A stretch of 7,097 bases of DNA, from the IMG/VR virus record IMGVR_UViG_2671180846_000033, one strand, 5' to 3'. Below the pieces are notes generated by a model. That model saw nothing but the letters and a program-made list of their open reading frames with translations. It was not told where the DNA came from and did no database searches. Origin of the DNA: a virus. Taxonomy: Duplodnaviria > Heunggongvirae > Uroviricota > Caudoviricetes. The position numbers were made by a program, and so were the translations under genes. Positions 2,839 through 6,814 of this stretch are shown in pieces. Within the stretch, counting starts at the first letter, position 1; each line of letters starts with the position of its first letter.

Positions 2839-3399
2839 TCAAATAAAACCAGCTGCCTTCCGGCGTTCGTATTCCTGTTTCAGCCGCTCAATTGGCGTTG
2901 GCCCTTGCGGGTGTTTCGCCCCTTCCAGTTGTCGTCGCACTGGCGGAACACTCATCCCGTTACCAACATGCTTTGCCCATTTCGTCAGTTGCCGTTCTGC
3001 AAGTAGTTTTAACTCACCCTGCGTCATCTGGCGCTCAATCCCTCTGGTACGCATTTCGAGGCAGATGTGGTACAGCACAGGCTGTGGCCACGGGTATTTA
3101 TCACTCCCGTCGTATCGCCAGGATTCATTGCGCCAGCGCCGGTACTCTTCCATCACGGCATCCACCGTAAGACCAAATGGATTTGCCCCACTCTCCGAAA
3201 TCAGCGCAACAAACTCAGCCAGGTCCGGGGGCCACGTTTCACCCGCCCGGCAGCGGTCCATGCACTGACGGCAGACCAGACGGATTTGCTGTTCAGTCAT
3301 CGCACCAATCTGGGCAATCCAGAGCTTCGAAGGTGCGGCCCCGTTCTTCTGAGTCCAGCGGTTCGAATACACCTCCCCCATAAGCTCCCACAGCTTCCA
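2839..3399 (-). CDS. Replication protein P-like (lambda P family helicase-loader homologue); 5' end undetermined because of the N-run
   Basis: The translation matches my recollection of the lambda P central and C-terminal regions (MTEQQI, a PPDLAEFVAL segment, DKYPW, a TQGELKLLAERQL segment). The ORF-track start (TTG at 3495) lies in sequence that reads better in the O-like frame. The true start is either ATG at 3381 (GGGAG upstream) or inside the N-run. Confidence 0.65.
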   Translation of the reverse strand, partial: WKLWELMGEVYSNRWTQKNGAAPSKLWIAQIGAMTEQQIRLVCRQCMDRCRAGETWPPDLAEFVALISESGANPFGLTVDAVMEEYRRWRNESWRYDGSDKYPWPQPVLYHICLEMRTRGIERQMTQGELKLLAERQLTKWAKHVGNGMSVPPVRRQLEGAKHPQGPTPIERLKQEYERRKAAGFI

Positions 3400-3449
3400 N
3401 NNNNNNNNNNNNNNNNNNNNNNNNNNNNNNNNNNNNNNNNNNNNNNNNN
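3400..3449. other. Run of 50 N at the O-like/P-like gene junction
   Basis: Directly visible in the sequence. Confidence 1.
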
Positions 3450-4168
3450 GTGAAAACCTTCCCCTCCGCCATCCAGTAATCCCGGAATGCGGCAAGCTCA
3501 GCAGGTGTAAATTCCGGCTCAGGCAGAGCCATACCCCACACTGCTGCCCGTTGTCGAAAATCCGGCGACGGCTGCCAGACAGTAGTCATCGAAAATTTCC
3601 CGATCGGTTCGCTCAGGCCGTCCAGGTATTCAGGTTCGGCTGTCTGCAACGGCGCACCATGCGACTCACTGGTCGGAATACTCTCGCGTTCACGCACGTT
3701 ATGTGTGGGGTTTAATTCTTTTAGATCTGTATCTTTATTAGTTGCTTTTGTGTTTGCGTCATGTTCAAACACAACACCAACATTTGTTTGAACACCTGTT
3801 AAATCTCTCTCTTGTTTTGTTTGAACATATGCTTCCTTTCTGCTTCTTCTGGCCTGAACAGATGCTTTTCCGGCGGCTGATTTTTTGGTCAATTTTTCCC
3901 TGACTGATGCCAGATCTTCCTCAATCCGAAGATGCACCCATTCATCGCTGTTATCGCAAAAAAACTCCCGCAAGGATGGTTCCACATCAGCCCATCGCTC
4001 GTTAGTCAGACGGGAAATTTTTGCCAGCCTGTTTTTAGGTATTGGTTTCCCTGTTTGCCAGTAATTGAACATCAGCAACAAATACGCACCGTGCTCCTCT
4101 GCGGACAAATGCATGGTGTCAGCCAGGTAATCAGCTATGTACAGTTGCATGTATGGTAATGCGGCCAT
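3450..4168 (-). CDS. Replication initiator, DUF1376/YdaU-like (functional analogue of lambda O); 3' end undetermined (in or beyond the N-run)
   Basis: N-terminal segment [32 protein letters not shown] resembles DUF1376 proteins, followed by a low-complexity linker and a C-terminal domain. ATG at 4168 has GAGG 5 nt upstream; the track start at 4222 is a TTG. The frame stays open across the N-run to 3293, but that stretch overlaps convincing P-like coding. Confidence 0.65.
3762..3828. repeat. Iteron-like repeats inside the O-like gene (candidate replication origin)
   Basis: TGTTCAAACA (3762-3771) is the exact reverse complement of TGTTTGAACA, which occurs at 3785-3794 and again at 3818-3827 as part of TTTGTTTGAACA. 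The repeats lie in the AT-rich linker-coding part of the initiator gene. Confidence 0.45.
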
Positions 4169-4949: not shown

Positions 4950-5075
4950 GTTTCCCTCCGAACTTTACGATGACACCGATAATTACAAATTTAAATTTAA
5001 ATTTCAACTTCTATTTGTAATGCCACTTATCAATTTTTTCTGTAGGATCGCGGAACTAGTTTACGAGGGGTGGTG
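4950..5075. promoter_or_regulatory. Divergent control region between the Cro-like and CI-like genes (OR-like)
   Basis: ATTACAAAT (4982-4990) and its reverse complement ATTTGTAAT (5013-5021) flank a palindromic (AAATTT)x3 tract (4987-5004). The 14-bp motif AATTACAAATTTAA (4981-4994) recurs at 6223-6236. Ribosome-binding sites for both flanking genes are present. Confidence 0.6.
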
Positions 5076-5468
5076 ATGATCTTTGTAAAACGCCTTCAGC
5101 AGGTGTTGCAGGAATTGAATATAAACCAGTCAGAGCTGGGAAGACGTCTTGGTGTAAAACCCCAATCCGTGCAAGGTTGGTTGAAAGGCGTGATGCCAAG
5201 AATGGATAAACTGGAAAAATTAGCAGAGCTCTCACAACATCCCGTCCATTGGTTCTTTATGGAAGAAGAAACTCTCGGCGATAAAATGGCTGTATCCAGT
5301 AATGACAACCAACCGCAACTTACAGAACAACAACGAAAAATCATATCGCTTTTAGATGAGTTACCTCAAAGCGACGCAGAGCAGATCATTCGTGATATGG
5401 AGCAAAAACGCGATTTCTATAAACGGAAACTTGAAGAGTTACTGCGGCAGAAAAACAAAACTGCCTGA
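5076..5468 (+). CDS. CI-like phage repressor, XRE-family HTH with coiled-coil-like C-terminus and no S24 peptidase domain
   Basis: The track ORF starts at GTG 5070; ATG at 5076 is preceded by GAGGGG (5065-5070). HTH segment NQSELGRRLGVKPQSVQGW; C-terminal 50 aa are charged and heptad-like. About 130 aa, too short for a LexA-type cleavage domain. Confidence 0.8.
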   Translation: MIFVKRLQQVLQELNINQSELGRRLGVKPQSVQGWLKGVMPRMDKLEKLAELSQHPVHWFFMEEETLGDKMAVSSNDNQPQLTEQQRKIISLLDELPQSDAEQIIRDMEQKRDFYKRKLEELLRQKNKTA

Positions 5469-5499
5469 TGCATTCCTTTTCTGGAACGAGCATCAGGCA
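5462..5499. terminator. Hairpin between the convergent repressor and higA genes (candidate bidirectional terminator)
   Basis: TGCCTGATGC (5462-5471) pairs with GCATCAGGCA (5490-5499), with inner TTCC/GGAA pairing. A T-rich tract follows on the minus strand (reverse complement of 5441-5461). Confidence 0.5.
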
Positions 5500-5514: not shown

Positions 5515-5874
5515 TTATAATCCAACCAGGCTTTCCAGGGGGATACCAAATTGATTATGAAGACGGCGAATCATTGGTAACGTAAGGCTTCTGGTACCAT
5601 TCAACACCTCATAAACCCGATTTTTTTTCCCAATTGCGGGTTCCAAATCTTTCACAGTCAGCCCCTGCTGTTCCATGCGAAATCTTATAGCTTCAATTGG
5701 GGATGGTGGCTCAATGGGATAATGTTTTTTTTCATATTCCTCTATTAGCAAACACATCACCTCAAAAAAATCCCCCTCAGGCGTGTCAATTTCGGGCTCA
5801 TTGTCGAACATGGGTTCAACAGCACGCAACGCGGCTTCATAATCTTGCTCTGTACGAATAGGTTTGATGTTCAT
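5515..5874 (-). CDS. higA: HigA-type antitoxin (XRE HTH, type II TA)
   Basis: 119-aa ORF with C-terminal HTH LTVKDLEPAIGKKNRVYEVLNGTRSLTLPMIRRL. Starts 2 nt after the toxin stop, with GGAG upstream. Confidence 0.8.
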   Translation of the reverse strand: MNIKPIRTEQDYEAALRAVEPMFDNEPEIDTPEGDFFEVMCLLIEEYEKKHYPIEPPSPIEAIRFRMEQQGLTVKDLEPAIGKKNRVYEVLNGTRSLTLPMIRRLHNQFGIPLESLVGL

Positions 5875-5876
5875 GC

Positions 5877-6179
5877 TTACTCCAGTTCGATGGTATCAGC
5901 ATCAATAGCATCGTATTCCTTGTGGTTTCCGATGAATTTAACAAATACCCATCCTCGCTGATACGCAATTGCAACAATTAAACGGTAATGATTACCTTTT
6001 ATGTTGAATACCACGCGCCGGTTTTTCAATATACTGGCCGTTCGGTATTGTGCCTTAATGTCTGCTGGGCTTTTCCAGTCAGCTTTTGCCGCCTCATCCA
6101 CCCATGCCCTTAGCGGTTGTTCTGCATCAGGATTCTCCGCCCAAAAATCCCTGAGTGTTTTAACTGAGATAATCTTCAT
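5877..6179 (-). CDS. higB: HigB-type toxin (RelE/ParE superfamily)
   Basis: HigB-like pattern in the translation, including GNHYRLIV and KFIGNHKEYDAID. The track start (6224) is a TTG; the ATG at 6179 gives about 100 aa. Toxin precedes antitoxin, as in HigBA modules. Confidence 0.8.
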   Translation of the reverse strand: MKIISVKTLRDFWAENPDAEQPLRAWVDEAAKADWKSPADIKAQYRTASILKNRRVVFNIKGNHYRLIVAIAYQRGWVFVKFIGNHKEYDAIDADTIELE

Positions 6180-6190
6180 AACTGTATAGT

Positions 6191-6207
6191 AGTCCCATTT
6201 TGGGACT
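6191..6207. promoter_or_regulatory. Perfect 17-bp palindrome AGTCCCATTTTGGGACT just upstream of higB (candidate HigA/HigBA operator)
   Basis: Read directly from the sequence; lies 12-28 nt upstream of the higB ATG on the minus strand. Confidence 0.5.
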
Positions 6208-6222
6208 GATGCAACAGCCCGC

Positions 6223-6276
6223 AATTACAAATTTAATAATAAACATGTTGACCAGTTAAATTTTAATTTGTAAATT
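6223..6276 (+). promoter_or_regulatory. pL-like promoter/operator region for the rightward early operon (OL-like)
   Basis: Second copy of AATTACAAATTTAA (6223-6236); TTGACC (6248-6253), 17-bp spacer, TAAATT (6271-6276); inverted ATTTGTAA (6266-6273) overlaps the -10. Confidence 0.5.
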
Positions 6277-6457: not shown

Positions 6458-6814
6458 GTGGGCGAAGTCAAACATCAGAATGGAAGGCATCCAGGGATCA
6501 GCAAAGAAACAGCGATGGCGCTTTATATTGATATCAGCGCCATTGCCGGACAGGTAAGAATTATCAGAGCGGTAACTAAGCGGTATGCGCCTTTACTTCA
6601 GAAAGTCTCTGGTGAGTGCACCGAAGATATTGTCAACGATTTCGTCATCAAACTGCGAGGACTCATCTTCAGTTACAAGGTGACCACAATTTTTGCAGAT
6701 GGCTCCCGCGAAACTGTCAGAGCCCTGCGGCTTAAAGGATGTGTCAAAGACTTAGCCACCACATTCTGGGCAAGAAAACTTGATTGTATTCATAACCAAT
6801 TTCCTCTCGAGTAA
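6458..6814 (+). CDS. Hypothetical early-left operon protein
   Basis: 118-aa ORF from GTG 6458 (AGAGGA 7 nt upstream) or about 100 aa from ATG 6515. No family recognised. Confidence 0.5.
   Translation: MGEVKHQNGRHPGISKETAMALYIDISAIAGQVRIIRAVTKRYAPLLQKVSGECTEDIVNDFVIKLRGLIFSYKVTTIFADGSRETVRALRLKGCVKDLATTFWARKLDCIHNQFPLE

Follow-up and report, generated by a model that had tools for sequence, protein, structure and literature searches.

The window analysed here, a stretch of 7,097 nucleotides, matches at 100% identity a lambdoid Qin/DicB-like prophage carried by Escherichia coli E2865, and its higBA stretch is present in 148 complete E. coli genomes. The gene order runs from a ydaS/cro-like gene (minus strand) through a candidate OR, a DicA-like repressor gene (plus strand, 5070–5468), higA and higB (both minus strand) to a candidate OL with a pL-like promoter, a conserved early leader, ydfC, dicB and exonuclease genes; higBA is transcribed antisense to the repressor gene. 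The replication-gene region contains 100 masked bases (N; at about 2340–2400 and 3330–3460), and several ORF translations contain runs of X. The features on which this report dwells are the following:

5515–5874, minus strand: higA, antitoxin/repressor gene, 119 aa, C-terminal HTH (Pfam HTH_3; K-12 HigA)
5877–6179, minus strand: higB, toxin gene, 100 aa (Pfam HigB_toxin; K-12 HigB structures)
6186–6191, minus strand: putative higB −10, TACTAT (class A matrix)
6191–6207, no strand: inverted repeat AGTCCCA-TTT-TGGGACT, putative HigA operator (class A conservation, flank counts, symmetric double changes)
6209–6214, minus strand: putative higB −35, TTGCAT (class A matrix)
6225–6236, plus strand: copy of TTACAAATTTAA, candidate OL, 10 bp upstream of the higB −35
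6248–6276, plus strand: pL-like sigma-70 promoter TTGACC-17-TAAATT, directed away from higB (promoter scan)
6262–6273 (minus), 4983–4994 (plus) and 5009–5020 (minus): partner copies of TTACAAATTTAA (12-nt motif search)

HigB matches the Pfam family HigB_toxin (PF09907; E = 4.8e-33, 113.7 bits against a cut-off of 27) and the K-12 HigB structures 5IFG/5YCL (E = 3e-7), whereas HigA carries an HTH_3 domain over residues 63–115, with the recognition helix N85-R-V-Y88-E, and matches K-12 HigA in the same structures (E = 3e-9 over residues 6–112). No NCBIfam equivalog model was matched by either protein. The higA gene begins 2 nt past the higB stop, in toxin-first (reverse) order, and has a Shine–Dalgarno sequence (SD), GGAG, 5 nt ahead of its ATG. 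A K-12 HigBA-like type II system should pair a toxin of the RelE-like HigB_toxin domain with an Xre-type HTH antitoxin encoded directly downstream, and both are found here; a toxin of this type is expected to stop growth through ribosome-dependent mRNA cleavage and to be neutralized by its antitoxin. Between the stops of the repressor gene and higA lies a perfect 10-bp inverted repeat with an 18-nt loop (5462–5499; TGCCTGATGC / GCATCAGGCA), followed on the minus strand by GTTTTGTTTTTC; it is terminator-like for higBA and reaches into the 3′ end of the convergent repressor gene. With a loop longer than 8 nt, it escaped the terminator scan. On the plus strand the stem is followed by no T-run, and transcripts of the repressor gene might read antisense into higBA.

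The repeat that is the main subject of this report reads AGTCCCATTTTGGGACT at 6191–6207 and consists of two 7-bp arms, AGTCCCA (6191–6197) and TGGGACT (6201–6207), perfectly inverted about a centre at 6199. The 3-bp centre, TTT, is not self-complementary, and on the opposite strand the 17-mer reads AGTCCCAAAATGGGACT; the ‘perfect 17-bp palindrome’ described in the first-pass annotation is accordingly perfect in its arms but not symmetric at its centre. Its placement immediately upstream of higB is borne out, with the repeat ending 11 nt before the minus-strand ATG at 6179. The half-site cores GTCCC and GGGAC are 10 bp apart, centre to centre, that is, one helical turn; an antitoxin operator should be two-fold symmetric with half-sites about one turn apart, and 6191–6207 has this form. 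The repeat is single-copy in the window even with three mismatches allowed (0.26 expected). The window has 6 perfect inverted repeats of this class (arms of 7 bp or more, spacers of 0–6), versus 2.8 ± 1.6 in dinucleotide-preserving shuffles, and about 0.016 are expected in any given 40-nt stretch; a repeat finder with a minimum length of 10 did not pick up the 7-bp arms. Within the window alone the repeat is statistically unremarkable, and its significance comes from comparison with other higB loci rather than from window-only statistics.

Conservation of the repeat and of the higB promoter

One genome per species was scanned with an alignment of HigB relatives, and 80 higB loci (55–87% HigB identity) were kept out of 594 candidates. 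They include Enterobacteriaceae, Bartonella (chromosome and plasmid), Burkholderiales, Pseudomonas and Chromatiales, as well as Actinomycetota, Cyanobacteria, Chloroflexota, Ignavibacteria and others. The exact motif TCCC-N5-GGGA lies no more than 70 nt upstream of the higB start in 67 of the 80 (68 of 81 counting the window), and across the 80 loci it occurs 69 times in the −50 to −1 bin, versus twice in the other 236 kb of flanking sequence. Scored for the best 7-3-7 symmetry, 29/81 loci match at seven of seven pairs and 61/81 at six or more, the corresponding figures for shuffled upstream regions being 3/1620 and 105/1620. A recognizable site is absent from 11/81 loci, mostly cyanobacterial and other distant ones. 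The abundance of 7-bp-arm repeats in the window, given above, is what might be expected were the repeat a functionless product of chance; however, the same sequence at the same position in at least 55 loci of distant phyla, and its near-absence from the 236 kb of flanks, make such an origin vanishingly improbable. The site precedes higB in metagenome-assembled genomes as well as on chromosomes and plasmids of many phyla; it is inherited with the cassette whatever the genomic context.

Across 67 aligned sites there is essentially no variation in the inner four pairs, and the outer pairs show 28 cells of double-sided change versus 7.8 in shuffles, a symmetric covariation that by itself fits a DNA palindrome and an RNA hairpin alike. 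Closer to the window, 23 viral contigs with HigB at 97–100% identity all keep the core of the repeat, with centre variants AAAAT, AAAAC, AAATC and GAAAT. The hexamer that follows GGGAC in these near-identical contigs varies only at positions 3–4 (TACTAT, TAATAT, TATCAT, TAACAT, TAGCAT and TACCAT), and a TTG is retained 17 nt upstream of it. The two nearest non-phage relatives, Leclercia tamurae (L033) and an Enterobacteriaceae metagenome-assembled genome (L036), carry a second operator copy 28–30 bp farther upstream, at −48/−50 from the higB start; none is present in the window, and most other loci also have one copy only. At the place of the second copy in these two relatives, the window has a phage operator-like sequence.

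Alignment of the loci on the repeat centre separates a class A (n = 55, window included) from a class B of more distant loci (n = 11). In class A the conserved arms, (A)GTCCCA at −8 to −2 and TGGGACT at +2 to +8 from the centre, are preceded by a −35 element (positions −15 to −12: T 49/55, T 44/55, G 39/55, C 31/55) and followed by a −10 element (positions +8 to +13: T 51/55, A 53/55, three free positions, T 54/55), and no conservation is seen upstream of the −35 in the 55 loci. The repeat fills the 17-nt spacer between the TTGc −35 and the TAnnnT −10, and the first T of the −10 is the last base of its right arm. Judged by these conserved hexamers, the layout is that of a putative sigma-70 promoter with a 17-nt spacer. 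The distance from repeat centre to start codon is 20–21 nt in 52/55 class A loci. In class B the site lies 5 bp farther upstream relative to the promoter, with the TTG overlapping the left arm, and an extended TGnTAnnnT −10 is followed by the start codon at 6–7 nt. An antitoxin operator should overlap the core promoter of its operon, and the site does so by filling the spacer in 55 loci and by overlapping the −35 in 11, the promoter being defined by phylogenetic footprint. The consensus promoter scan called no minus-strand higB promoter, since TTGCAT-17-TACTAT agrees with the consensus at only 7/12 positions; it was recovered through the footprint instead. An alternative promoter on the minus strand, TTAACT-18-TAAATT (about 6259–6230; 8/12 by eye), was rejected as phage-specific and not conserved in other higBA loci. 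Likewise rejected was an in-frame TTG at 6224 as the start of higB, with which the repeat would be coding: HigB homology starts at the ATG at 6179, and the upstream conservation is palindromic, not triplet-periodic.

The promoter bears directly on whether the repeat acts in DNA or in RNA. As an RNA hairpin, it would lie in a higB 5′ UTR transcribed from a promoter farther upstream and would control mRNA stability or translation. The 7-bp stem with its 3-nt loop is present in the minimum-free-energy fold of the sequence if transcribed, the 28 cells changed on both sides are compatible with RNA pairing, and some variants retain G-U-type pairing only (for example, GGTCCCA...TGGGATT in L007). However, the fold is no better than those of shuffled sequences (z = −1.44; 15/200 shuffles at least as stable), the inner four pairs keep one and the same sequence from phylum to phylum, pointing to base-specific recognition, and the commonest mismatches on the coding strand are A:C and T:T rather than G:U. 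A terminator would have a stem followed by a U-run, and a structured RNA would keep its pairing by compensatory change while its sequence varied freely; the terminator scan gave no terminator-like sites, which together with the unvarying inner pairs and the z value fits neither, and no Rfam match was obtained at the gathering threshold or at E ≤ 1. Moreover, since the repeat is flanked and partly overlapped by the conserved promoter hexamers, with no conservation upstream of the −35, most higB transcripts would be expected to begin downstream of it. Taken with the covariation between the site and a protein helix of HigA described below, these observations render the hairpin reading very improbable and favour a DNA operator.

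The same layout has a consequence for translation of the toxin. The start codon follows the −10 by 6–7 nt in 52/55 class A loci (6 nt for the window ATG at 6179), which leaves no room for an SD before higB, and the window higB has none. An SD-like 4-mer precedes higB in 11/81 loci, several of these being, by eye, the TAGGAT −10 hexamers of Pseudomonas; ahead of higA, one is found in 64/77. A leaderless gene has its start codon at the expected transcription start and lacks an SD, as is seen at higB. Given the short distance from −10 to ATG and the absence of an SD, the higB mRNA is probably leaderless, and this is the likely state across the family. In two exceptional loci (L095 and L112), the promoter and operator are retained ahead of a leader of about 15–20 nt bearing GGGGGA or GGAGG, which lends support to a transcription start just past the −10. 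Leaderless translation is uncommon in E. coli. The lambda cI mRNA made from PRM begins at the AUG, and the −10-to-ATG spacing of the window higB would suit a leaderless gene. The searchable literature yielded neither transcription start data nor binding, footprint or reporter results for this subfamily.

Recognition helix of HigA and related systems

If HigA reads the site, the specificity of the operator should track the recognition helix of the antitoxin encoded beside it. The HigA proteins encoded downstream were aligned, and the residue at the position of Y88 in the window was compared with the seventh base from the repeat centre. All 53 proteins of Tyr88 type accompany sites with G (46) or A (7) in the left arm and C (51) or T (2) in the right arm at this position; all of these sites are either of GTCCC type or differ from it by a single base. 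By contrast, the sites of all 14 proteins of Ser/Ala type have C/G, T/A, A/T and other outer bases, never G/C; they include GCTCCCA..TGGGAGC, GTTCCCA..TGGGAAC, GATCCC..GGGATC, TCTCCCA..TGGGAGA and GTTACC..GGTAAC. Farther away, the K-12 HigA helix SMVSRV is paired with TTGCCA-N3-TGGCAA, and a 37%-identical viral homologue with the helix LSKVNQ is paired with ATTTCAT-TTT-ATGAAAT. Site specificity thus follows the helix in sequences that are not phylogenetically independent, and the strength of the association is inflated by shared ancestry, class A and class B being separate clades. The N3-spaced two-fold layout is kept while the half-site shifts with the recognition helix, as would be expected if a HigA dimer reads the site. 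This comparison yields a candidate recognition rule in which Tyr88 corresponds to a G:C pair at the seventh position from the centre.

The nearest solved relative of the window system is higBA (ygjN-ygjM) of E. coli K-12, which likewise combines a PF09907 HigB_toxin with an Xre-type HTH HigA and has the toxin gene first, although protein identity between the two is low (E about 1e-7 to 1e-9). The K-12 operon has a single promoter upstream of higB that is repressed by the chromosomal locus and by HigA in trans, and an SD for K-12 higB is drawn in a figure of the same paper (PMC2814082). E. coli hig O1–O2 operators are also mentioned elsewhere (PMC12266136). Upstream of K-12 higB lie the repeats ATCCGTTGCCA-ATC-TGGCAACGGAT and TTGCCA-ATT-TGTCAA, which share with the window repeat an N3 centre and an inner CCA-N3-TGG and which overlap candidate promoter elements (−35, spacer and −10) recognized in the K-12 sequence. 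The two systems differ in half-site (TTGCCA in K-12, GTCCCA in the window), in the recognition helix of HigA (SMVSRV and NRVYEV, respectively), in the number of sites (two, with 11-bp arms, against one) and in the distance from the candidate −10 to the ATG (about 27 nt against 6 nt).

HigB–HigA of Proteus vulgaris Rts1 shares the toxin-first order, but its toxin family and HigA architecture are unlike those of the window. In that system, which has two 21-bp operators bound non-cooperatively, a HigA dimer binds operator inverted repeats and HigA alone represses; the operators, hig O1/O2, are drawn with the −35 and −10 of Phig and are reported to be distinct from the E. coli hig operators (PMC12266136). 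Pseudomonas HigA and GraA and M. tuberculosis HigA3 are reported to be HTH antitoxins that bind palindromes in their own promoter regions (PMC6987408, PMC6393540, PMC7340258). The window element would act like the K-12 operators and, more loosely, like those of Rts1 and other HigA systems.

A HigA 93% identical to that of the window is also encoded, as an orphan, in phage D6 (a P1-like Escherichia phage, MF356679.1, locus L030; 1994–2353, minus strand). It has neither a HigB partner nor a TCCC-N5-GGGA site, and it follows the hairpin AAAGCCCACTTAGCAAGTGGGCTTT downstream of an unrelated RelE/HigA pair. This orphan could be an antitoxin decoy against the HigB of a resident prophage or a trans-repressor of its operator.

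Phage surroundings of higBA

The pL-like promoter of the window is homologous to TTGACC...TAAACT of phage vB_EcoS-640R1, which lacks higBA and in which the homologous promoter and leader lie about 80 bp past the cI stop, without the repeat. We infer from this relative that higBA is a cassette of about 750 bp lying between the repressor gene and the candidate OL. In lambda, rexAB occupies the slot between cI and OL/pL, and window higBA lies in the equivalent place, from the repressor gene to the candidate OL/pL; unlike rexAB, it runs antisense to the repressor gene from its own putative autoregulated promoter. The motif TTACAAATTTAA occurs in four copies with 0–2 mismatches, arranged as inverted pairs at the candidate OR and OL, where they flank the cro/repressor divergent region and the pL-like promoter; four or more copies of such a motif were found in 13/200 shuffles. 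These copies probably serve the DicA-like phage repressor as its operators.

The segment 6286–6500, which follows the pL-like promoter, is found at 85–95% identity in 3080/5426 complete E. coli genomes and in several phages, usually with no annotated feature, and Rfam returned nothing for it even at E ≤ 1; this segment may be an early leader or nut-like region of DicB/Qin-type prophages. Farther on, a RefSeq putative zinc-binding protein of the ECs_2282 family is annotated at 6593–6793 on the minus strand, a stretch spanned by a plus-strand ORF of 118 aa (6458–6814) that has no Pfam match.

The first-pass annotation had suggested that autoregulation of the toxin–antitoxin (TA) operon and early transcription from pL may be coupled through the short region that they share. 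In its direct form, the repeat would belong to phage OL/pL control, either as the site of a phage regulator or as a site from which HigA itself controls pL. It does lie within the 100 bp that separate higB from the divergent pL-like promoter, a candidate phage operator copy (6225–6236) is only 10 bp from the higB −35, and the arrangement is kept in 23/23 near-identical viral contigs. However, lambdoid OL and OR carry the same motif and overlap pL and pR, whereas the higB repeat has one copy in the window and none in the candidate OR, and the motif that the candidate OR and OL do share, TTACAAATTTAA, is unlike it. The two promoters are back to back and do not overlap: the repeat is about 41 bp from the pL-like −35, too far away to occlude it directly. 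With the pL start placed some 7 nt past the −10 (6271–6276), the repeat falls at roughly −76 to −92. Furthermore, unrelated bacteria whose chromosomes and plasmids lack this phage region have the repeat together with higBA, and the higBA-less relative has the homologous pL promoter without it. A role of the repeat in OL/pL control is therefore very unlikely, and the proposed coupling finds no support in a repeat that belongs to a mobile higBA cassette and occurs outside phages; the preferred reading remains that of an operator for higBA itself.

Indirect coupling is possible through the copy of TTACAAATTTAA at 6225–6236, which adjoins the higB −35 and lies at about −46 to −57 of the higB promoter, PhigB. 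In an extended version, the 100-bp divergent region would work as an integrated switch in which the phage repressor at 6225–6236 sets PhigB and HigA feeds back on pL, an arrangement that we regard as improbable. Were it to hold, loss of the repressor on induction would alter higBA expression, and both the leaderless, HigA-gated toxin transcript and HigA bound about 80 bp upstream of pL would feed back on early transcription.

Putative autoregulation of higBA and its wider occurrence

The repeat at 6191–6207 is very probably the operator at which HigA, or the HigBA complex, acts on the higBA toxin–antitoxin operon. That it stands where an autoregulatory TA operator is expected had been proposed in the first-pass annotation, and sequence comparison lends the proposal strong support: most of the 80 loci have this repeat at a like distance from higB, it is near-absent from the flanks, it lies inside the footprinted core promoter and its outer bases covary with the HigA helix. 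The K-12 operon provides a precedent, with N3-spaced repeats and a promoter repressed by HigA (PMC2814082).

In the mechanism that we propose, a HigA dimer, alone or within HigB–HigA, would set its two HTH recognition helices on GTCCC and GGGAC. HigA bound at 6191–6207 would occupy the spacer and the first base of the −10 and would exclude RNA polymerase from PhigB, since the site fills the space between −35 and −10 and shares a base with the latter; the outcome would be negative autoregulation of higBA. Whether HigB serves as co-repressor or derepressor differs among HigBA systems (PMC12266136). Transcription would start on the A of the higB ATG (6179) or no more than one or two bases away, and translation of the toxin from a leaderless mRNA, with the antitoxin translated from its own SD, would favour an excess of antitoxin. 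The comparison shows the sequence, its conservation, its position and its covariation with HigA; binding by HigA, the repression of PhigB, the point at which transcription begins and the consequence for translation are inferred from these. As for a leaderless toxin and an SD-driven antitoxin forming a family-wide device that sets the toxin:antitoxin ratio in a toxin-first operon, we consider the chances to be about even.

Antitoxin operators in TA promoters are textbook knowledge, and as an element the repeat is therefore ordinary; the searchable literature gave no description of this particular operator, layout or HigBA subfamily. More unusual among the by-products of the analysis are the probable leaderless design across the family and the orphan HigA of phage D6. 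For annotation of the prophage, higBA is best taken as a self-contained accessory cassette between the repressor gene and OL, and its control is better kept apart from the phage early switch. For the family, the comparison yields (A)GTCCCA-N3-TGGGAC(T) as a testable operator consensus, together with the promoter layout of a widespread HigBA subfamily: the −35, the putative operator, the −10 and a start codon placed where transcription is expected to begin all move with the genes across phyla.
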